Source of the DNA: a virus | Lineage: Duplodnaviria; Heunggongvirae; Uroviricota; Caudoviricetes | IMG/VR virus record: IMGVR_UViG_2571042690_000022 | Reading direction: 5' to 3' (one strand) | DNA: 34,937 nt | Shown here: positions 1 to 34,937 of the stretch, one piece after another | Layout of the letters: every line of letters begins with the position of its first letter | Position numbering within the stretch: the stretch's first letter is position 1 | Program-made: the position numbers and the translations under genes | Notes under the pieces: model-generated | Told to the model about the DNA's origin: nothing | Database searches by the model: none | What the model saw: the letters and a program-made list of their open reading frames with translations, nothing else

Positions 1-390
1 TTACTCTTTTTTCTCCGTATCTGCATCGGGTTCATCAGCAAATAGCTTGCCCTGCATCCGATCCAGTTCTTCTTTTCTTACCCGCTTAACCACGCTGTAG
101 ACCCACTGAAGCGAAACACCAAATTTGCGGGCCAGTTCGTGGTGGTTGCGTCCGTTAAACTCCCTGAAGATTTCCCGGTCGCGCTGACTGACCTTCCATA
201 CCATGCCCATCGGGAAATAAACGTTTTGCCCGCCCCAGACCTGCATCATTCGGTTCGCGACGGCCTGACCAATCTGGTCGGCAACTTCGGGCTCAATATC
301 AATAATCTCGCGAACGGTCTCAGAGGTATGCTGTGCCAGTTCCACCAGGAGTTCCGGCCCCTTACTTCGAAACTGATTCAGGTCGCTCAT
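1..390 (-). CDS. mor: Mor-family (Mor/C) transcriptional activator of middle/late genes
   Basis: 129 aa; C-terminal region GGQNVYFPMG...FNGRNHHELARKFGVSLQWVYSVVKRVR resembles the Mor/C family HTH region as recalled from Mu Mor; last gene of the leftward early operon; stop codon at 1-3. Confidence 0.75.
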   Translation of the reverse strand: MSDLNQFRSKGPELLVELAQHTSETVREIIDIEPEVADQIGQAVANRMMQVWGGQNVYFPMGMVWKVSQRDREIFREFNGRNHHELARKFGVSLQWVYSVVKRVRKEELDRMQGKLFADEPDADTEKKE

Positions 391-811
391 GTTTGACTCC
401 CGCAGCTCTGCGCTGCCACTTCTTCAGTTTCTCAATAACACTGCTTGCCTGTTCAGTACTGAGCCAGCGCAGGGCGCTGATGCCCGTTTCCCGCTTGATC
501 CACCTCGCTAATGCATTTTCTGAACGGTCACGAACAATGCCGGCAGCAGCCATTTCAAGCCATAGCGCACGAATTTTCCTGGACTGCGGATGGTTATCAA
601 GCGGTAAACCGGAGCTGGCTTTTCTGGCTGGTTTAACGCGAAAGCCTTTCTTTTTCATGGATTCCAGCACGCAGTTTAGTTGTGTGGTATCCATTCCTTT
701 GGTTGAGGCTTTACCGGTCAGCCCCTGTAACATCTGGCGGTAGGTGTCTTCATCCATACCCAGTTCATTACGGGCAATATGGATAAGCTGTATCAGGCGT
801 TTTTTCTGCAT
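362..811 (-). CDS. gemA: GemA-like early regulatory protein (DUF1018-type, Mu gp16-like)
   Basis: 149 aa; N-terminus MQKKRLIQLIHIARNELGMDEDTYRQML typical of GemA/DUF1018; RBS AAGGAG about 7 nt upstream of ATG at 811; 29-nt overlap with mor as in Mu gemA-mor. Confidence 0.6.
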   Translation of the reverse strand: MQKKRLIQLIHIARNELGMDEDTYRQMLQGLTGKASTKGMDTTQLNCVLESMKKKGFRVKPARKASSGLPLDNHPQSRKIRALWLEMAAAGIVRDRSENALARWIKRETGISALRWLSTEQASSVIEKLKKWQRRAAGVKHERPESVSK

Positions 812-1019: not shown

Positions 1020-1239
1020 TCTGAATACCTCCCCATTCGATATGAATATTACGGGCAGCAATGACAGGGTCGTTATTCCACCATGCACCTGACATGTATT
1101 TTTCAACCTGTTCGCGTCCGGCAATAACACCAATTGTGATCCCCGGCCTGACGTTCTTAAAAAAGGCGCGGGCAAAAAGGTATCTGGCAGATATTCGGCA
1201 GGCTTTTAATTTCCGGCTTTTACCTGATAGCGTAATCAT
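1009..1239 (-). CDS. hypothetical early protein
   Basis: 76-aa ORF; start overlaps the stop of the upstream gene (coupled arrangement); no recognisable motif. Confidence 0.3.
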   Translation of the reverse strand: MITLSGKSRKLKACRISARYLFARAFFKNVRPGITIGVIAGREQVEKYMSGAWWNNDPVIAARNIHIEWGGIQNDY

Positions 1240-1919
1240 CTGGCCTCCAGTTTCTGTTGTTCCTGCCCACTGACCGGGCGGTGCAGTCTGACGTTCTGCC
1301 CTTCACGAAACCCCGCATAGCGCGAGGCGTCGCCATTGCGGCTTCTTCCCGGTTTACGCGCCCTGGTGGTTTGCGTCTGCGGGTATTTATGTTCCAGCCA
1401 CTGCTGCATCAGTTCACGCTCATCATCGGTCAGGGCAAAGGACTGTATTTCACTGATAACGGCCAGCACCCAGCCTTCGGCAAACTGGTCTCCACGGCTG
1501 GTGCGGGTGGCGGTTTTTATTCTTTTGTTCTGTGCACTGATATACTGCTGACGCGCCTTTTTCAGCTGACGGGCCAGCACTTCCCAGGTGTATGCAGCCA
1601 GTGCCGCACGTTCCCGGTTGCCGTAGAACCCCACAGACGGATGCGTGCCGGGGTGAATGATGGAGTTAACACCAAATACCTCGCGGATGATGTTCATCAG
1701 GCCCAGCATGTAGCGCGGTGGACGGAGACTGCCTGTCGGCCAGTAGTGACTGATGGTTTCATCAATATCACTCATAGCAATGTCGGAATGTGTGATGCCG
1801 TGAACATCCATCAGTTTACGGGCTCGGCGCAGTGCCAGAGCGGCCTCGTGCGGGTTGCCGGATGCGGCCAGCGCCAGCAACTTTTTCAGTTTCTCAATGT
1901 GTTTATTCTGGTCTGTCAT
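1236..1919 (-). CDS. DUF2786-like early protein
   Basis: Start chosen at ATG 1919 (MTDQNKHIEKLKKLLALAASGNPHEAALALRRARKLM, DUF2786-like N-terminus); ATGA overlap with stop of upstream gene at 1916; GGAG RBS about 10 nt upstream. Confidence 0.5.
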   Translation of the reverse strand: MTDQNKHIEKLKKLLALAASGNPHEAALALRRARKLMDVHGITHSDIAMSDIDETISHYWPTGSLRPPRYMLGLMNIIREVFGVNSIIHPGTHPSVGFYGNRERAALAAYTWEVLARQLKKARQQYISAQNKRIKTATRTSRGDQFAEGWVLAVISEIQSFALTDDERELMQQWLEHKYPQTQTTRARKPGRSRNGDASRYAGFREGQNVRLHRPVSGQEQQKLEAR

Positions 1920-2131
1920 TGTTCTGTATCTCCGGTATTTTTCTGCCGTTTCCATGCCCGGACAGCGTCGGACAGCTCTTTCAGGCTGTATGCTGCTTTA
2001 AGCTTTTCCCATAACCACTGTGTTGTTATGTGCATCAGCAGGGCAGCCAGGGCTGCCCCCGCACTGAGGCATGTCGCCAGGCCAGTAAGAATCAGTGTCC
2101 ATGCGGTGATTTCCCTGAGTATGTCAGCCAT
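1916..2131 (-). CDS. small single-pass membrane protein, hypothetical
   Basis: 71 aa with one hydrophobic helix (WTLILTGLATCLSAGAALAALLM); tightly packed in the early operon. Confidence 0.4.
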   Translation of the reverse strand: MADILREITAWTLILTGLATCLSAGAALAALLMHITTQWLWEKLKAAYSLKELSDAVRAWKRQKNTGDTEQ

Positions 2132-2145
2132 TGAATGCCTCCCGG

Positions 2146-2442
2146 TTACTCGTTCGTGTAAATCACGCCCAGTCGTGCAGCCAGACGTTCCAGTTTTTTC
2201 TGTTTGTGGAAGTCAATCAGCCGGTCCATCCCCTGAAGGCGCAGTTGCTCTGTCATGATTTCCACGTCTGCCAGCTCTGCCGCGAGGTCACTTTCGCTGC
2301 CCTGTCCGTTCAGGTTGCGGGCGGCACTGGCCGCCAGTTCAGCGGCCTCTTCTGCCAGTTTCAGGGCCTGTGCGTCCGGCCCGAAACGCTGCAGGGCCAG
2401 ACGGTAGAGGGCGGTGCGGGTGAGTTCGGTGTTTCGTGTCAT
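2146..2442 (-). CDS. MazG-like nucleoside triphosphate pyrophosphohydrolase (all-alpha NTP-PPase)
   Basis: 98 aa; KLAEEAAELAASAA followed by LAAELADVEIMTEQL matches the paired EExxE and ExxD metal-binding helices of small MazG/HisE-like proteins (from memory). Confidence 0.55.
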   Translation of the reverse strand: MTRNTELTRTALYRLALQRFGPDAQALKLAEEAAELAASAARNLNGQGSESDLAAELADVEIMTEQLRLQGMDRLIDFHKQKKLERLAARLGVIYTNE

Positions 2443-2451
2443 GCCGCGCCC

Positions 2452-2724
2452 TCAGTGCTTCCGGCTGACGGTGATGTGCAGGCCGCCTTCTGCAGTGGTT
2501 TCCATCCGGTACGGCACCTCATGCTCTGCCGTGTGGGTGAGTGTGTTCATCAGTACCTGCAGGGCAGCCTCCTTTCCGTTGGTCGCCACAATGGCCTGTG
2601 TGGCCATGCTGATTAGCGCCGTCAGGACGTGCTTCACATCGGTGAGGTCGCGGCATTCACACTCGTTGACATAGTGTTCAACAAGGGTTCGGGTGCGCTG
2701 TCGTGCTTCCTGTGGGGTAATCAT
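2452..2724 (-). CDS. hypothetical early protein
   Basis: 90-aa ORF in operon context; no recognisable motif. Confidence 0.4.
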   Translation of the reverse strand: MITPQEARQRTRTLVEHYVNECECRDLTDVKHVLTALISMATQAIVATNGKEAALQVLMNTLTHTAEHEVPYRMETTAEGGLHITVSRKH

Positions 2725-2915
2725 TGCGAGTCCTCCCTGTCAGGGCGGGAGAATTCCATGACGGGCACGTCTGCCGAAAAATGCTGGCTGCAGTACGGGC
2801 AGACCAGGGTGACGCGTACCGCAGGGATGTGGTATTTACCGGACATCACGGCGATGGCGCTGTGAAAACGCAGGGCTGTTATATCCCTCTCGCACTGAAT
2901 ACATTTAAATATCAT
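2721..2915 (-). CDS. small zinc-ribbon protein (CxxC-N30-CxxC)
   Basis: 64 aa with CIQCERD and CPYCSQH pairs; first gene after the gam-downstream intergenic gap. Confidence 0.4.
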   Translation of the reverse strand: MIFKCIQCERDITALRFHSAIAVMSGKYHIPAVRVTLVCPYCSQHFSADVPVMEFSRPDREDSQ

Positions 2916-3012
2916 GATTTAATTCTCCTCTGTTTCCGGCGTGCAGAAGCCCGCGGCGCTGACGTCGGAATAAAAAAGAAAATGTTTTTATTAAATAATT
3001 AACGTGGTGTGT

Positions 3013-3543
3013 TTACTGCACATCCTGCTCAAAAGGAATTATTGAAAAATCCTCAATGTCGCTTTTAATGGAAATACCGGGAATATTTTTCACGGCCTCT
3101 TTTTCATTCAGGATAGCGTCTTTATTTATTTCCTCTTTTACACGAATAAAGCGCTCAAGCCCCAGACGTCTCAGTAATTCAATAACATTATCCGCCCCAC
3201 GGATACTGACTGATGGCGGACGGTTTCGCCACTGCACCTCGCCGGTGGTGAGGTTAGCGAACTTCACCTTCCCGTTGCCGGTCAGTTCATCACGGTGTGC
3301 CTCACACCATGTCTGAATACCGGACTGCAGTTCGGCCATGCGTTTTTTCAGGCTCTCGGTGAGCGGGGCATAACGTGCGGTGATATCGCCAATGGCGTCA
3401 TTCATTTCTGTTTCAGCCCTGACCAGTTCACGTTGTGCGTCACCGAGTAGTCTGATTCCCTCAATGACCTCTTCACGTGTCCCCGGCACCCAGAGTGCTG
3501 CTGCGGCCTTGATACGTTTTGCACCTTTTGTACTTTTTGCCAT
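3013..3543 (-). CDS. gam: Gam host-nuclease inhibitor (Mu Gam-like)
   Basis: 176 aa; stretches such as WRNRPPSVSIRGADNVIELLRRLGLERFIRVKEEINKDAIL and IEDFSIIPFEQ closely resemble Mu Gam as recalled. Confidence 0.85.
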   Translation of the reverse strand: MAKSTKGAKRIKAAAALWVPGTREEVIEGIRLLGDAQRELVRAETEMNDAIGDITARYAPLTESLKKRMAELQSGIQTWCEAHRDELTGNGKVKFANLTTGEVQWRNRPPSVSIRGADNVIELLRRLGLERFIRVKEEINKDAILNEKEAVKNIPGISIKSDIEDFSIIPFEQDVQ

Positions 3544-3842: not shown

Positions 3843-5009
3843 TTAAACCCCTTTGACAACGTCAGCGTTGACCTGTGGAACCCCGATTTCAGCGGCCAGA
3901 TTCATGGCGGCTATTACCAGGTTACTGACGGCCAGCGGATACAGCAGGCTGACCATATTTTTACGGTGACTTCCCGGATTGCTCAGGCGGGCACGTATGG
4001 CATCCACTGCACCGGCGTCCATAATGTCCGTCAGCTGTTTACCGGCCCGTTGCAGTTTGAACGTCAGAAATTCTTCAAGGTTATTGTCCAGAGGCAGAAG
4101 TTCGACCACCTCACAGCGCTGAACGACTTCACGGACTTCCATATTGCGTTCAGACAGTTTTGTCGCCAGTTCCGGCTGGCCAATCAGCACGATGGACAGC
4201 AGTTTTTTGAAACCGGACTCCAGCTCAAAAAAGCGTTTGAGGTGTTTCAGTGTCGGAATGGGCAGACTGTGGGCCTCCTCAATCACCAGAACGTGGCTGA
4301 ACCCCGCCTGGCTGCTGTCTTTCAGGACGCGATGCAACTGGCGAAAACGGGCGTCCTGACTGCGTCTGATGCTTTCCAGTGGTGCGATGGTACTGATAAT
4401 GGCTTCGGCAATAGCTGCTGCCTTCAGGGTTTTCCCTTTCACATCGTTGTCTTCCATAGCGATGATGTATGGCTCGATAACAATTACCGGCGCATTCTCG
4501 CGGTTGATACGTTCAGTCAGGTCGCGGCGCAGCGTGGATTTACCCGCACCGGACTCACCGATGACGGCCATAAACCCACCATGACGGGCTGTCTGGTACA
4601 GCGCCTCACGCACGTAGCGAATGTCCGGGGTGGTGAACACATCATCAGAACCCTGCATGGCTTCGTCGGCGAACGGGTCACGGAAAAGACCAAACGCTTT
4701 TTTGGTTGCTGGAAATAACACCTGTTTTTTGAGTAACATATTCTCTTCCTCACTGAGGCTCGTTTTATCTGTGGTACCCGCTGTACGGGGCGTGGCCGCG
4801 CCCTGTACAGCATCAAAACTCTTCGTTGTATCAATCCCCTGACTTTCCAGCCAGGACGCAAGACGCCGGCGCACTTCTCCGGGGCTGGTGCGGGGCCACG
4901 CGTTATGATTCACAATCTGGGCCAGCGTGGCCTCAGAAACATCGACAGCTCTCGCCACCACCGCCTGTGGAATACGGGCCTCTTTCAGTTGCTGCTTCAG
5001 TACCAGCAT
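3843..5009 (-). CDS. transposition ATPase (Mu B-like/TniB-like AAA+ protein)
   Basis: Walker A GESGAGKST, Walker B-like HVLVIEEAH, N-terminal HTH-like segment; start set to ATG 5009 (MLVLKQQ) with GAGGAGGG RBS; directly downstream of the transposase. Confidence 0.8.
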   Translation of the reverse strand: MLVLKQQLKEARIPQAVVARAVDVSEATLAQIVNHNAWPRTSPGEVRRRLASWLESQGIDTTKSFDAVQGAATPRTAGTTDKTSLSEEENMLLKKQVLFPATKKAFGLFRDPFADEAMQGSDDVFTTPDIRYVREALYQTARHGGFMAVIGESGAGKSTLRRDLTERINRENAPVIVIEPYIIAMEDNDVKGKTLKAAAIAEAIISTIAPLESIRRSQDARFRQLHRVLKDSSQAGFSHVLVIEEAHSLPIPTLKHLKRFFELESGFKKLLSIVLIGQPELATKLSERNMEVREVVQRCEVVELLPLDNNLEEFLTFKLQRAGKQLTDIMDAGAVDAIRARLSNPGSHRKNMVSLLYPLAVSNLVIAAMNLAAEIGVPQVNADVVKGV

Positions 5010-5019
5010 GTTTCCCTCC

Positions 5020-6789
5020 TCAGTTGCCGTTAACAATGCTGATAACACTGCTGCGGGCCGGTGTGGTCAGCGTGGCCATGACTTCATCCAGTGCGGCTTC
5101 CGGTACGCCGTCCGGGTACTGTGCCGTTAACTGGCGGTAATGTTCCGGCGTCCAGGTAAGGCCGTCGGCGCTGAACTTATCGCGCAGGGCTTTCGCGGCC
5201 TCCACATGAGTCATGGGACGTTGTTCAGTGCGCGGCCCGCGTACGTCAGAGGCCTGACCACGCTTCGGCATATAGGCCGGAAGTGTGGTGTCGTCGATAT
5301 GTTTATACGGGTCAAGCCGCCCGCCGAACGGCAGCGCCTTCGCCTTGCGTGCGGCGGCTGCATCTGCGGCGTTGTCTGTACCGGTAACCAGCGCTTCGGT
5401 TTCTTTTGCCGCCATCTGTGCCGGGGTTTCCGGCAGGGCTTTGTAACTTTCGCCAAATACCGCCGCGCCTTCAGCAAAGCCAAACTCGTTCTTTCTGACC
5501 TCTTCGACCAGGAAGAACGTCTCGTGGCCGTCCTCACCGGTCAGAACCACCTGTGCCACATCGCTGCGCCATGGGTTACGGGTAATCATCAGTTTTTCAC
5601 CAACCAGTACGCCCGGTACCGTTGATACGTCAAATTCAGTGCCCCGGAACGAGACACGAAGTTTTGGCGTGACTTTGCGGAGTTCTGGTGCCGCCACAGC
5701 CAGTTCACGACATACCTCAACGGAAGGCGCTTTTTTCAGCTGCTCAGCAGTAATCTTCAGCCAGATATCCGTGCGGGTTTTACCGTGGCGGCTGTGAACA
5801 GCCGTGGCGTTAAAGTGGCTGCGCCATTTCGCGGCCAGCGCGTTGAGTTCTTCCAGACTGTGAACCGGCCGGAACTTCAGACCCGGCTCCAGCTTGCGTT
5901 CGATAATGTCACGCGCCTTTTCCACCTGTCCGGTGGCGCGGGCGTTATGCGGCTTGTGCGCTATCAGGTCGATGCCCAGTGAGCGGCACATGTTTTTCGT
6001 CATACCCGCGGTGTTTGCCGAGCCGGGGTCGAGATAGAGTATTTTCGGCACGCCGTGCAGCACGTCTGCGCCGCCACGCTCCTGCATGGCGTTGATAAGC
6101 ACAGAACACAGGTTCTCACCTGATTCCGCGCCCGTCACATACTCAACGTAAATCCAGCCGCTGGCATGGTCGGTAATCTCGTAACTCCACACGCGGTCAC
6201 TGGCGATACGGGCAAGGTTAGCGGGCTTGTTCTTGTAGAACTTCGCGCTGTCCATCACCTGCAGCCCTTTATGTCCATTGCTCAGGTAGTAAAGCGTGCA
6301 GAGTGAGGCGTCAATCTGCCAGACATGATTGGGATGCAGACTGGCCACTTCGGTATGTGGTGCAGGGGCATCCAGTTGTTCCGGGTGCAGGCCATAGTTA
6401 CGCAGAGCACGGCTGATGGCATCTTCAGACAACGGGAAAAACTCACTGGTGGTTTCATCTGTTCTGCCTGCGGTGATAAAGCCGTTAGCCCGCAGGGTTT
6501 CCACTGCATCTGCGATGGAATAGAGACGCTTACCGTTCTTGCGGGTGGCCTCACGCAGTGTGGCAGATATCAGCGCGGCTTCGTCGCGGGTCAGGGCGCT
6601 GCGCCCGGCATCGGCGCGTTTTTTGCGTTTATCAGTCACAGATACCTCCTTCAGCCTGCGCAGCAGAGTGGCGCGGGACATGCCAAGTTCAGCACAGGCA
6701 GCGTCGTATATTGCACCGCGTTTACCATGCCCCGCGTCACGTGCCGCGCGGGCTGTTTCAACCAGTTTTTCAGTCAGTGCCGGGGTCAT
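5020..6789 (-). CDS. DDE transposase (Mu A-like)
   Basis: 589 aa; candidate DDE residues in WQIDAS, YLDPGS and GQVEKA; gene order ner-like, A, B as in transposable phages. Confidence 0.9.
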   Translation of the reverse strand: MTPALTEKLVETARAARDAGHGKRGAIYDAACAELGMSRATLLRRLKEVSVTDKRKKRADAGRSALTRDEAALISATLREATRKNGKRLYSIADAVETLRANGFITAGRTDETTSEFFPLSEDAISRALRNYGLHPEQLDAPAPHTEVASLHPNHVWQIDASLCTLYYLSNGHKGLQVMDSAKFYKNKPANLARIASDRVWSYEITDHASGWIYVEYVTGAESGENLCSVLINAMQERGGADVLHGVPKILYLDPGSANTAGMTKNMCRSLGIDLIAHKPHNARATGQVEKARDIIERKLEPGLKFRPVHSLEELNALAAKWRSHFNATAVHSRHGKTRTDIWLKITAEQLKKAPSVEVCRELAVAAPELRKVTPKLRVSFRGTEFDVSTVPGVLVGEKLMITRNPWRSDVAQVVLTGEDGHETFFLVEEVRKNEFGFAEGAAVFGESYKALPETPAQMAAKETEALVTGTDNAADAAAARKAKALPFGGRLDPYKHIDDTTLPAYMPKRGQASDVRGPRTEQRPMTHVEAAKALRDKFSADGLTWTPEHYRQLTAQYPDGVPEAALDEVMATLTTPARSSVISIVNGN

Positions 6790-8052: not shown

Positions 8053-8361
8053 TTACAAACGACTACCTGAAATGACACGTTGGTTAATTTCGTTAATACG
8101 ATCCTGTGCACGTGCCATCTCGTTACTGTGGGCCATGGCGATCTGCAGTAACTGGATGCCCGGTGCAAAACGTCCGTTCTCCAGTTTCAGAGCCAGCCCT
8201 TCTTCAATGAGGGTGTTGAGTGCCCGGTTGATGTTTGCCGGTGACTCGTGCAGTGCTGTCGCCAGTTCACCGTTAGAAATACCGTTCAGGGCATGACCGC
8301 GCAGCGCTTTGAGTACCCGGAGGATGCGACTGCCGGAGCTTGAAACATTCGTCTTACTCAT
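8053..8361 (-). CDS. winged-helix DNA-binding protein (IclR/MarR-like HTH)
   Basis: SRILRVLKAL...GISNGELATAL...NINRALNTLIEEGL resembles a wHTH N-terminal domain; start uncertain (8361 or 8367). Confidence 0.45.
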   Translation of the reverse strand: MSKTNVSSSGSRILRVLKALRGHALNGISNGELATALHESPANINRALNTLIEEGLALKLENGRFAPGIQLLQIAMAHSNEMARAQDRINEINQRVISGSRL

Positions 8362-8413
8362 CTGCATACCTCTTTTGCGATATGTGATAACCTTTTACAA
8401 AGACTCAAAATAT

Positions 8414-8602: not shown

Positions 8603-8695
8603 CGTTGTCTCCTTTGTTGATGCAATGATGTTTGCCTTATATGTGTTAGATTATTGCTCATAATTATGAGCATATCAAGATAGAGATTCACTTTT
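8603..8695. promoter_or_regulatory. divergent early-promoter / repressor-promoter switch region
   Basis: 93-bp AT-rich gap between divergent ner-like and repressor genes; contains the 8655-8672 palindrome and a TATAAG-like -10 (rc of 8636-8641) suitably placed for the leftward operon. Confidence 0.5.
8655..8672. promoter_or_regulatory. candidate operator: 18-bp perfect palindrome TGCTCATAATTATGAGCA
   Basis: Perfect dyad read directly from the sequence; its right half TTATGAGCA recurs at 8694-8702 overlapping the repressor start codon. Confidence 0.5.
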
Positions 8696-9052
8696 ATGAG
8701 CAAAGATATAGGAGAGCGCGTTATTTCTGTGAGGAAGAAAGCAGGGTTGAACCAGAGAGAATTTGCAGCTCGTTTAGGTATTTCTAATGGTGGTATCAGT
8801 CAGATTGAAAATGGAAAGGCGATGCCTGGAGGGGAGTTTCTGTTAAAGATGCATCAAGAGTTTAATGTTGATGTAAATTGGTTGCTCACTGGAATGAGCA
8901 CAGATGGTATGACTAGAAACCAGAATCAAATTTCCCCAGAAAAACAAAAACTAATAGATACTTTTGACGACATGACACCAGACCAACAACGCTCATTTCT
9001 TGAGATTGGGCGATTCTATACTCAGCCAAAACCAGGAAAAATCGCAGGCTGA
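8696..9052 (+). CDS. XRE-family HTH repressor (lysogeny repressor candidate)
   Basis: 118 aa; N-terminal HTH (LNQREFAARLGISNGGISQIENGK); divergent from the early operon; gene is markedly AT-rich relative to its neighbours; weak or no SD. Confidence 0.75.
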   Translation: MSKDIGERVISVRKKAGLNQREFAARLGISNGGISQIENGKAMPGGEFLLKMHQEFNVDVNWLLTGMSTDGMTRNQNQISPEKQKLIDTFDDMTPDQQRSFLEIGRFYTQPKPGKIAG

Positions 9053-9137: not shown

Positions 9138-9170
9138 ACCGGAAAGCATTGTGCTTTCCGGTTTTGTTTC
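9138..9170 (+). terminator. rho-independent terminator-like hairpin
   Basis: Stem ACCGGAAAGCA (9138-9148), loop TTG, stem TGCTTTCCGGT (9152-9162), then TTTGTTTC; lies between the convergent repressor and dam 3' ends. Confidence 0.5.
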
Positions 9171-9933
9171 AGAAGTTGCAGATTAGCAGTTCACGGCGCG
9201 GCGTGGGTTTACCCGCCAGACTGTAGTTGATATTCACTGTCTGTATGTTCAGTCCAGTGAACACCTCGCGCATCTGCGGGATGTCGTTCACCGAAATTAT
9301 CATTTTTCCTCTGATGCACCGGGCCAGCTCTGCCAGCCGCGAGTAGTTCCCTTCAGGAAAATCCACACCATAGCCTTCCGTACCCAGGTACGGTGGGTCG
9401 CAGTAGAACAGCGTGTGCGGACGATCATAACGCTCAATGCACTGTTGCCAGTCCATGTGTTCTATGACTGTTCTGGAAAGCCGCAGGTGTGCCGCTGACA
9501 GTTCTTCTTCAATACGTAGCAGGTTGAAGCGTGGCGGGGATGTGGTGGAGGTACCGAAGCTGTGCTCTGCCACCTTGCCGCCAAACGCCTGCTTCTGAAG
9601 GTAGTAGAACCGTGCCGCACGCTGGATATCCGTCAGTGTTTCTTCCGGGGTGATCTGCAGCCATTTGTAGATCTGACGGCTGACCAGCGCCCATTTGAAC
9701 TGGCGGACAAATTCTTCCAGGTGATGCTTTACCACCCGGTACAGATTCACCAGTTCACCGTTGATATCATTGATGACTTCGATCTTGCCGGGTGTCTTAA
9801 GAAAATAGAGCGCTGCTGCCCCACAAAACGGCTCCACATAACATTCATGCGCCGGAAACAGCGGCAGAATGTGTTTTGCAAGGCGGCGTTTGCCACCAAT
9901 CCACGGCACGATGGGTAATGTCTGCATTTTCAT
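9169..9933 (-). CDS. dam: Dam-family DNA N6-adenine methyltransferase (orphan, no cognate endonuclease seen)
   Basis: WIGGK, YVEPFCGAAALYF, INDINGELVNLY and FYCDPPY match E. coli Dam motifs as recalled; start set at ATG 9933 (MKMQTLPIV) rather than the ORF-track start at 10023. Confidence 0.85.
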   Translation of the reverse strand: MKMQTLPIVPWIGGKRRLAKHILPLFPAHECYVEPFCGAAALYFLKTPGKIEVINDINGELVNLYRVVKHHLEEFVRQFKWALVSRQIYKWLQITPEETLTDIQRAARFYYLQKQAFGGKVAEHSFGTSTTSPPRFNLLRIEEELSAAHLRLSRTVIEHMDWQQCIERYDRPHTLFYCDPPYLGTEGYGVDFPEGNYSRLAELARCIRGKMIISVNDIPQMREVFTGLNIQTVNINYSLAGKPTPRRELLICNF

Positions 9934-10038
9934 AATCTGCAAGCCTTTTACAATTATTAAAAAATATGGCAGTCTGGTCAGGTCTCGCGAGACTGACTGA
10001 ACCTTGGTCGGCTCACAGCGCATTCCTGTGGGGCGATG

Positions 10039-22643: not shown

Positions 22644-24060
22644 CTATCTGCATGGTCCCGAAACCATTGAGGTGGAAAACGGTGCCCGCCCGGTTAAAAC
22701 GGTGAAATCTGCCGTTATTGGCCTGATTGGTACCGCCCCGATGGGGGATGTCAATACGCTGGTACAGTGCCTGTCTGAGAAAGACGCAGCGGCATTTGGC
22801 AGCCAGTTCACCGGCTTTACCATTCCGCAGGCGCTGGATGCGATTTATGACCATGGTGCAGGCACCGTTCTGGTCATTAACGTCCTCGACCCGGCGAAAC
22901 ATAAAACGGCGATCGAGGATGAGGTGGTTACCTTTGACAAATCGACAGGGCAGGCCAGACTGGCGCATCCGGTTGTCGCTAATGTGGTGGTGAAAAACAG
23001 TGAAGGCAGCACCACCCACACGGCGAACACGGACTACCGTGTTGATGCGCAGGCGGGTGTGCTCACGAACCTGGGCAAGGCTATTGAGGCCGGTGGCAGC
23101 GTGAAGGTGAGCTATGAGTACGCGGACCCGTCGAAGGTGACTGCGGCGGACATCATCGGCGGGGTGAACAGCGCCGGAAACCGAACCGGCATGAAGCTGC
23201 TTAACGACAGCTTCAACCTGTACGGCTATTTCGCCAAAATTCTGATTGCGCCGGTGTTCTGCACCCAGAAGAGTGTCGCAGTTGAGCTTATCGCCATGGC
23301 AGAGAAGCTGGGCGCGGTAACCTACATTGATGCGCCTGTCGGTACCACCTTTGCACAGGCTCTGGCAGGTCGTGGCCCGGAAGGCACCATCAACTTCAAT
23401 ACCAGCTCCGACCGCGTCCGTCTGTGCTATCCGCATGTGAAGGTATATGACCCGGTGACAAACACAGAGCGTCTGGAGCCGCTCAGCCAGCGTGCAGCAG
23501 GTCTGCGTGCCAGAGTCGATCTGGACAAGGGCTACTGGTGGTCATCCTCCAATCAGGAGATTCTGGGGATCACCGGCGTGGAGCGCCAGCTGTCCGCGAT
23601 GATTGATGACCCGCAGAGTGAGGTGAACCTGCTTAACGAACAGGGGATCACCACGGTATTCAGCAGTTACGGCAGCGGCCTTCGTCTGTGGGGTAACCGG
23701 ACGGCAGCATGGCCAACGGTCACCCATATGCGTAACTTTGAGAACGTTCGCCGCACCGGTGATGTGATCAACGAGTCCATTCGTTATTTCAGCCAGCAGT
23801 ACATCGACATGCCGATTACTCAGGCGCTGATTGATGCACTGACGGAGTCGGTCAACGCCTACGGTCGCAAAATGACTGGTGATGGTGCGGTACTGGGCTT
23901 CCGTTGCTGGTTTGATCCGGCCCGCAATCCGGAGACGGAGCTGGCCGCCGGGCACCTGTTGCTGAGCTACAAATATACGCCACCACCGCCGCTGGAGCGA
24001 CTGACGTTTGAGACTGAGATCACCTCGGAATACCTGTTAACCCTGAAAGGGGGCAACTGA
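22633..24060 (+). CDS. tail sheath protein (Mu L-like)
   Basis: 475 aa; size, position before the tube gene and conserved C-terminal region typical of contractile tail sheath. Confidence 0.85.
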   Translation: MAANYLHGPETIEVENGARPVKTVKSAVIGLIGTAPMGDVNTLVQCLSEKDAAAFGSQFTGFTIPQALDAIYDHGAGTVLVINVLDPAKHKTAIEDEVVTFDKSTGQARLAHPVVANVVVKNSEGSTTHTANTDYRVDAQAGVLTNLGKAIEAGGSVKVSYEYADPSKVTAADIIGGVNSAGNRTGMKLLNDSFNLYGYFAKILIAPVFCTQKSVAVELIAMAEKLGAVTYIDAPVGTTFAQALAGRGPEGTINFNTSSDRVRLCYPHVKVYDPVTNTERLEPLSQRAAGLRARVDLDKGYWWSSSNQEILGITGVERQLSAMIDDPQSEVNLLNEQGITTVFSSYGSGLRLWGNRTAAWPTVTHMRNFENVRRTGDVINESIRYFSQQYIDMPITQALIDALTESVNAYGRKMTGDGAVLGFRCWFDPARNPETELAAGHLLLSYKYTPPPPLERLTFETEITSEYLLTLKGGN

Positions 24061-34159: not shown

Positions 34160-34421
34160 CCTGTTCCGTGGCCCACCGCCACACCGCCAGCAGGCTGGTT
34201 AAAGTGCGACGGGCGCGCCTTTACAAAAGAACAATATCCTGTTCTGGCCAGAGTCTACCCGACCCTCCGTCTTCCCGATTTACGCGGTGACCTGTTCCGT
34301 GGCCCACCGCCACACCGCCAGCAGGCTGGTTAAAGTGCGACGGGCGCGCCTTTACAAAAGAACAATATCCTGTTCTGGCCAGAGTCTACCCGACCCTCCG
34401 TCTTCCCGATTTACGCGGTGA
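34160..34421 (+). repeat. perfect 131-bp direct tandem duplication (2 copies) within the tail fiber gene
   Basis: Copy 1 at 34160-34290 and copy 2 at 34291-34421 are identical by eye; 131 is not a multiple of 3. Confidence 0.85.
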
Positions 34422-34769
34422 GTTTATCCGTGGATGGGACGACGGGCGCAAAGTTGATACAGGACGTAAGTTGCTGTCCGCACAAGGGGCAACGCTGTTA
34501 AGAACAGCAATGCTGGATTATTATAACCAGGACACTACGGGAACCTCGGGGATAGTCGGCATGGGATTCAACAATGAAGATTCCATTACAGACCTTCGTG
34601 AGGGCAGCTTTAAAATGCCGGACGGGACAACATTCAGCGATCCTGTCGTGGCAATGTCAGACAATGGTATGCAGGCTACTATTCTGACCTCTATCAGAAG
34701 CGGGTATGCGAAGGGTATCACTGTCAGACCCCGTAGCATTGCACTTAATTACATTGTGAGGGCAGTTTA

Positions 34770-34937
34770 ATGAGTAACACTGCAGTTCTGGATGAAAACG
34801 GTATCGCCACTGTAGCGGGCGATATCACTGTATATCACTATGACGAGGAAACCCGGGAATACACCTCATCCTCTGTGGAGTATCTCGCCCTTGGGGTGGG
34901 TACTCCGGCACATTCGTGCGCCGATGCACCGCCGGAG
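34770..34937 (+). CDS. tail fiber assembly protein (chaperone), 3' end truncated by window
   Basis: ATG at 34770 overlaps the tail fibre stop (TAATG); N-terminus resembles Tfa-type proteins; ORF runs off the window end. Confidence 0.55.
   Translation, partial: MSNTAVLDENGIATVAGDITVYHYDEETREYTSSSVEYLALGVGTPAHSCADAPPE

Follow-up and report, generated by a model that had tools for sequence, protein, structure and literature searches.

The question raised by this locus is what kind of protein is encoded at 2146..2442 (-) and what it might do for the phage that carries it. The window, by which the whole analysed stretch of 34,937 nucleotides of phage DNA is meant, had been described in an earlier note as carrying here a MazG-like pyrophosphohydrolase gene in its early accessory region. 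The open reading frame gives a product of 98 aa (MTRNTELTRTALYRLALQRFGPDAQALKLAEEAAELAASAARNLNGQGSESDLAAELADVEIMTEQLRLQGMDRLIDFHKQKKLERLAARLGVIYTNE), and both acidic motifs named in that note, EEAAELA (residues 31-37) and AELADVEIM (residues 55-63), were read from its sequence. The product corresponds to XRL29418.1 of Escherichia phage PhiKM and is identical to RefSeq WP_001295929.1. A Shine-Dalgarno sequence, GAGGG, was read directly from the sequence at 2449..2453 (-), 6 nt 5' of the ATG, where it overlaps the TGA stop codon (2452..2454) of an upstream ORF of 90 aa; this overlap is a tight, operon-style junction. Full-length homologues with 65-75% identity were found in Salmonella, Citrobacter, Enterobacter, Dickeya, Proteus and Yersinia, and 621 of 5426 complete E. 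coli genomes (11%) carried the MazG-like gene, always on the chromosome. Pairwise dN/dS values, calculated against three diverged E. coli copies and the copy of Klebsiella phage KP12, lay between 0.05 and 0.38 and were mostly 0.1-0.2. The frame 2146..2442 is a real gene under purifying selection and not a chance frame.

The window was 100% identical to Escherichia phage PhiKM (PQ738613.1, genus Bcepmuvirus) over the compared segment 1200..3600, and it is essentially this BcepMu-like transposable phage, in whose GenBank record XRL29418.1 is named 'hypothetical protein'. The MazG-like gene belongs to a long minus-strand operon and is located between gam and gemA/mor. On its 5' side are the genes of a ner-like HTH protein (8053..8367, -), a DUF3102 protein (-, between the ner-like gene and the transposase gene), a DDE transposase (5020..6789, -), a MuB-like ATPase (3843..5048, -) and Gam (3013..3543, -), the last separated from the MazG-like gene by small ORFs. 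One of these, at 2721..2915 (-), encodes 64 aa with a zinc-ribbon-like CxxC-x30-CxxC pattern and matched PHROG 3401 (E 1.6e-40). Directly 3' of the MazG-like gene lies the gene of a hydrophobic protein of 71 aa (1916..2131, -) matching PHROG 3958, a family of no known function, followed by that of a DUF2786/DUF7168 protein of 239 aa (1236..1955, -), which matched PHROG 421 and is a conserved neighbour in many copies, and by gemA (362..811, -) and mor (1..390, -). This gene order is that of the early and 'semi-essential' region of Mu, and the placement of the gene in an early accessory region is a reasonable one on the evidence of synteny.

The best sigma-70-like match on the minus strand, TTGATA-17-AATAAT at 8650..8678 (-), was obtained in a consensus scan in which the number of sites was no higher than in shuffled sequences. 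By analogy with the early operon of phage Mu, this site is tentatively assigned as the early promoter that probably drives the operon containing the MazG-like gene. The gene of a CI-like repressor (8696..9052, +) diverges from it and is adjoined by that of a D12-class N6-adenine DNA methyltransferase (9169..10023, -; Pfam E 8.7e-29), which is outside the early operon; DNA methylase genes are also found beside relatives of the MazG-like gene in other phages. In Klebsiella phage KP12 the MazG-like gene occupies the same relative position but has different immediate neighbours. The gene that follows it also varies among the E. coli copies, some of which lack the 71-aa gene, so that the DUF2786 gene is then located directly 3' of the MazG-like gene. 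Because of these differing neighbours, the MazG-like gene behaves as an independent cassette. Scans of the window for tRNAs and Rfam families gave no match.

Several further observations were made on the annotation of the window. The 71-aa protein (1916..2131) has one strongly hydrophobic stretch, judged by eye to span about residues 11-33. The 64-aa ORF at 2721..2915 (-) is called as a gene in RefSeq E. coli (WP_001295928.1), while the PhiKM record has a CDS on the opposite strand there (record positions 23520-23741), the counterpart of which in the window is 2724..3002 (+); this CDS is probably a wrong-strand call. Long antisense ORFs at 1257..2258 (+) (333 aa) and 2131..2616 (+) (161 aa) overlap early genes including the MazG-like gene, and they are most likely non-coding frames kept open by the G+C-rich coding sequence of the minus strand. 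The match to PhiKM extended to about position 34254 and was then lost (34255..34937 versus PQ738613.1 4296..4801). Beyond this point the window has a different C-terminal region of the tail fibre and an ORF that starts at 34771 and is cut by the window end; from its N-terminal sequence, we take it to be a tail-fibre-assembly gene. At the same place PhiKM has a minus-strand ORF oddly annotated as 'Fe2+ ABC transporter permease protein 2' and then continues straight into mor. These differences point to a host-range cassette that is either alternative or invertible, and to a PhiKM record that is permuted or artefactually joined.

The family of the 98-aa protein was clearest in searches of phage protein families. 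PHROG 2245, 'nucleoside triphosphate pyrophosphohydrolase', was matched with an E-value of 5.5e-34 and 118.9 bits, residues 1-97 being aligned to positions 113-211 of the 218 in the profile. Three further PHROGs of phage MazG-like or NTP-PPase proteins gave weak matches (E 1e-4 to 0.03). The curated domain models gave scores below their cut-offs. Pfam PRA-PH (PF01503) scored 15.5 bits against a gathering threshold of 21.3 (E 0.023), Pfam MazG (PF03819) likewise missed its gathering threshold and gave no match to the window protein at E<=10, and the sole NCBIfam match was HisE TIGR03188 with 14.6 bits against 42.7. Among 22 close homologues, sub-threshold matches were found to PRA-PH in 17 and to MazG in 11, the latter all with E>=0.019. 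Among 80 distant relatives, Pfam MazG was matched at E<0.01 by 22, with a best value of 2.2e-5. A word-indexed search found more than 7,000 proteins, and none of the 120 best-scoring among those listed had a precomputed Pfam domain. An exhaustive HMMER search with the 22-sequence alignment recovered 10,445 cluster representatives at E<=1e-3, of which 1,916 had E<=1e-10.

The outcome of searches against the PDB depended on the query. With the single protein, phmmer returned only noise (IWS1, designed repeats) and no MazG, and the profile of the 22 sequences, which are enterobacterial, likewise returned no MazG and only noise at E>0.2. With the profile of the 80 sequences, which are diverse relatives of 30-50% identity, the matches included Bacillus MazG 5ie9 (E 0.0075), iMazG 2q73/2q5z, YpjD 2gta and Sulfolobus MazG 1vmg (E 0.36). 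The alignment to 5ie9 was in register, with EExxE on TEEMGE and ExxD on EELGD. The best E-value in this search, 7.8e-4, belonged to residues 8-76 of 3zta chain A, the N-terminal helical domain of a STAS-domain stressosome-type protein with an 'EIAD.V.IM' match; as the EExxE motif is missing from this alignment, the match was rejected as a coincidental helical similarity. Comparison of the 80-sequence profile with an E. coli-type MazG alignment by hhalign gave P-values of 2.8e-4 for the N domain and 4.6e-4 for the C domain. The reference consisted of E. coli MazG and seven homologues from phage-collection records, split into domains, and the hhalign probabilities were 33-41% because this eight-sequence alignment is shallow. 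The register was again right, the motifs falling on E38E39xxE42/E58xxD61 of the N domain and E171E172xxE175/E193xxD196 of the C domain of E. coli MazG. When the single E. coli MazG sequence served as the reference, the alignment was limited to 9 columns around ExxD (E 0.082). Some relatives (P0052, P0058 and others) are 150-240 aa long and have the domain at the C-terminus or in two matched stretches, the latter of which would be tandem MazG-like domains; Pfam scans of their extensions revealed no convincing fused partner domain.

The predicted structure was in agreement with the sequence matches. AlphaFold2 with the 80-sequence alignment gave a model with a pLDDT of 96.3, and all five models reached at least 95.2. 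The model consists of two long antiparallel helices, at about residues 9-44 (with a kink at G21-P22) and 50-90, joined by a loop at 45-49. Such a pair of helices is half of a four-helix bundle, as expected for an all-alpha protomer, and the model has exactly the hairpin form of the minimal MazG unit as defined in the literature. In a Foldseek search of the BFVD viral models the top matches were 'nucleoside triphosphate pyrophosphohydrolase' proteins (E 5.6e-5 to 5.6e-4, TM 0.74-0.81). A first AlphaFold model, built on a narrow alignment, had been unstable, with a best pLDDT of 90.5 and values from 57 to 90 among the five models, and was superseded by the 80-sequence model. A Foldseek search of the PDB with that first model returned nothing below E 0.5, and HISN2, 5ie9, 2gta, 4qgp and 3crc were in the top 50.

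The residues that would bind metal were highly conserved. The codons of the first acidic motif, E31-E32-A-A-E35 (EExxE) in helix 1, lie at 2338..2352 (-), and those of the second, E56-L-A-D59 (ExxD) in helix 2, at 2266..2277 (-); both motifs were aligned to those of 5ie9 and E. coli MazG. In the 80-sequence alignment E31 and D59 were present in all 80 sequences, E35 and E56 in 79 and E32 in 78, which corresponds to conservation of 78-80/80 for the first motif and 79-80/80 for the second. Also conserved were Q25 (79/80), Q66 (80/80) and, in the same alignment, the basic patch K80-Q-K-K83-L-E-R86 in the C-terminal half of helix 2 (codons at 2185..2205, -), with K80 in 68, K83 in 78 and R86 in 79 of the 80 sequences. 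The window protein retains all of these residues, including the four-ligand arrangement E-x-x-E on one helix (E32, E35) and E-x-x-D on the next (E56, D59), and these four are predicted to be the Mg2+ ligands. The equivalent quartet is Glu35, Glu38, Glu54 and Asp57 in 1vmg (PMC2954211) and Glu119, Glu122, Glu138 and Asp141 in M. tuberculosis MazG (PMC10014863). The patch K80/K83/R86 may bind the triphosphate, a role modelled on the basic residues Lys175, Arg182 and Lys194 of C. jejuni dUTPase (PMC10014863). At position 55 the window protein has Ala, the enterobacterial clade A, G or S, and 61 of the 80 relatives Glu; this residue is outside the four core ligands, and Ala there could alter the binding of additional metal ions. 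At position 45 the window protein and the enterobacterial clade have Asn versus Arg in the family consensus. The residues form the pattern expected of a conserved catalytic site and do not point to a degenerate pseudo-enzyme.

Membership of the 98-aa protein in the MazG/HisE/dimeric dUTPase (all-alpha NTP pyrophosphohydrolase) superfamily is thus supported by PHROG 2245, the PDB profile search, hhalign and the predicted structure, and the assignment made in the earlier note held. The superfamily match was found at the level of profile and structure, and the metal-binding acidic residues are not lost in the aligned homologues. The classification as a MazG-type NTP pyrophosphohydrolase is already known. 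Older RefSeq E. coli records name WP_001295929.1 'hypothetical protein', the newest ones 'nucleoside triphosphate pyrophosphohydrolase family protein', and PHROGs and RefSeq phage records annotate the family of the 98-aa protein as a pyrophosphohydrolase too. It is an ordinary, already catalogued phage accessory enzyme. No biochemical or phenotypic study of any member of the PHROG 2245-type family was found in the literature.

With moderate confidence, we regard the protein as a minimal single-domain all-alpha NTP pyrophosphohydrolase that most likely sanitises or re-balances the (d)NTP pool. According to the model, each 98-aa chain would form one long antiparallel helical hairpin, and by analogy with Sulfolobus MazG (1vmg) two chains would pack into a four-helix bundle and possibly further into a tetramer. 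In the assembled enzyme E32 and E35 of helix 1 and E56 and D59 of helix 2 would coordinate Mg2+, while K80, K83 and R86 would hold the triphosphate. The enzyme would then split an NTP or dNTP at its alpha-beta phosphoanhydride bond, yielding a monophosphate and pyrophosphate. The gene would be transcribed with the early operon of the BcepMu-like transposable phage, and the enzyme would most likely serve to sanitise or re-balance dNTPs, either non-canonical ones or certain canonical ones, during transpositional replication of the phage with host polymerases. Distant relatives occur in phages of Clostridium, Fusobacterium, Cellulophaga, Vibrio and Bifidobacterium, and their neighbours include DNA polymerase A, ThyX, DNA methylases, a VapE-like primase-helicase and an SNF2 helicase. 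This setting in replication and nucleotide modules favours sanitation or balancing of the nucleotide pool during phage DNA synthesis. House-cleaning is nevertheless only one of several roles compatible with the data.

The same fold and chemistry would serve an enzyme directed at (p)ppGpp, which would blunt the stringent response and toxin-mediated abortive infection and act as an anti-defence or host-takeover factor, the candidate role put forward in the earlier note. The precedent is Atd1 of Pectobacterium phage PcCB7V, a single-domain MazG-like protein that hydrolyses ppGpp with a Km of about 50 uM (bioRxiv 10.1101/2022.06.09.495361), is inactive on rNTPs and cGG (bioRxiv 10.1101/2022.06.09.495361), and relieves TIR-STING and retron-TIR toxicity (bioRxiv 10.1101/2022.06.09.495361; PMC10419184). 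The MazG-like gene lies in the early region of a temperate transposable phage, a variable region of the kind in which accessory and anti-host genes typically occur, and this would also suit such a role. However, the other phage MazG-like PHROGs were matched only with the weak E-values given above (1e-4 to 0.03), PADLOC gave no match for the MazG-like protein or five neighbours and no other defence-related match was obtained, and the distant relatives are located in replication and nucleotide-metabolism modules, not beside known anti-defence genes. We regard (p)ppGpp as an unlikely substrate of the protein.

A distinctly less probable version, again with unchanged fold and chemistry, is that the enzyme destroys a nucleotide of host immunity, for example the dITP of Kongming or the chain-terminating ddhNTPs of prokaryotic viperins. 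Non-canonical dNTPs are immune messengers that phages counter enzymatically (bioRxiv 10.1101/2024.12.20.629578), MazG-type enzymes hydrolyse non-canonical NTPs (PMC10014863), and MazG-like domains are also effectors in conflict systems (bioRxiv 10.64898/2026.01.15.699771). The known anti-Kongming factor, however, is a dNMP phosphatase and not a MazG protein (bioRxiv 10.1101/2024.12.20.629578), and Atd1 did not act on cGG (bioRxiv 10.1101/2022.06.09.495361). Cyclic oligonucleotides are unlikely substrates because, as their mechanism implies, all-alpha NTP pyrophosphatases need a free triphosphate, and this is consistent with the inactivity of Atd1 on cGG. We give a low probability to the idea that the protein is no general house-cleaning enzyme but specialises in counter-defence, clearing at an early stage of infection a nucleotide signal or poison made by the host, be it (p)ppGpp, as with Atd1, or a non-canonical (d)NTP (dITP or the ddhNTPs, for example).

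Even less probable is a non-catalytic helical-hairpin protein that would bind and inhibit a host protein. The model for such a host inhibitor is Aqs1 of DMS3 and comparable small proteins that other Mu-like phages make early. A phosphoribosyl-ATP pyrophosphatase (HisE) of histidine biosynthesis or an encapsulated-ferritin-like di-iron protein is hardly credible, as the HisE scores are far under the curated cut-offs, the gene is phage-borne with no his genes nearby, and the family has neither the conserved His or Tyr of a ferroxidase centre nor a sequence match to ferritin-like families.

The pyrophosphohydrolase assignment gives a confident identity, that of a minimal MazG-type nucleotide pyrophosphatase whose metal site is intact, to the 'hypothetical protein' of PhiKM and of hundreds of older E. 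coli annotations. The gene resides on a prophage that is very common in E. coli, and the widespread family to which it belongs may tune dNTP pools or counter nucleotide-based immunity.

Compared with known members of the superfamily, the phage protein differs from HisE (PF01503; 1yvw, 6j22, 7bgm) in its sub-threshold scores, in being carried by a phage and in its context, the neighbours being phage early genes instead of genes of the histidine pathway. E. coli MazG (b2781; 3cra/3crc), a chain of 263 aa, comprises two MazG domains in tandem and is encoded on the chromosome beside mazEF-relA, whereas the phage protein is a single domain of 98 aa that scores under the Pfam MazG threshold. The MazG of Sulfolobus solfataricus (SSO3215 in the PDB title; 1vmg) is likewise a minimal MazG but is archaeal and cellular, whereas the protein described here is phage-borne; the motif spacing is 16 residues in 1vmg and 21 in the phage protein, and the profile match is weak (E 0.36).

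Two phage enzymes were compared as well. The MazG of cyanophage S-PM2 was long proposed to act on (p)ppGpp. It neither binds nor hydrolyses (p)ppGpp and prefers dGTP and dCTP (PMC6850273). Like the PhiKM protein it is a phage-borne MazG-type pyrophosphohydrolase, but it belongs to the canonical MazG family, while the PhiKM protein is in a separate PHROG. Atd1, like the 98-aa protein, is encoded by a phage and consists of one MazG catalytic domain that carries paired catalytic motifs. To our knowledge, an anti-defence phenotype has been demonstrated for no other phage MazG-like protein. In an indirect comparison, no Pectobacterium phage was among the tblastn matches (E<1e-3) of the 98-aa protein or of the family representative, and PcCB7V was also missing from the tblastn matches of E. 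coli MazG. The two assayed phage MazG-like enzymes thus disagree on (p)ppGpp, the cyanophage MazG not acting on it and Atd1 hydrolysing it.

The proteins of the PHROG 2245 phages, which include Clostridium phages phiCP39-O, phiCP26F (gp47) and phiCT19406B and Cellulophaga phage phi10:1, belong to the same sequence family as the PhiKM protein, and tblastn with the family representative recovered these phages and PhiKM together. They share with the PhiKM protein a length of about 90-100 aa and the residues Y13, A16, G21, Q25, EExxE, ExxD, Q66, K83 and R86, although the identity to it is just 35-45%. The enterobacterial clade has Ala, Gly or Ser where Glu is usual at position 55, and Asn for Arg at position 45. 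While the genes of those phages are located in replication or nucleotide modules of siphoviruses and jumbo phages, the PhiKM gene lies in a Mu-like early operon.
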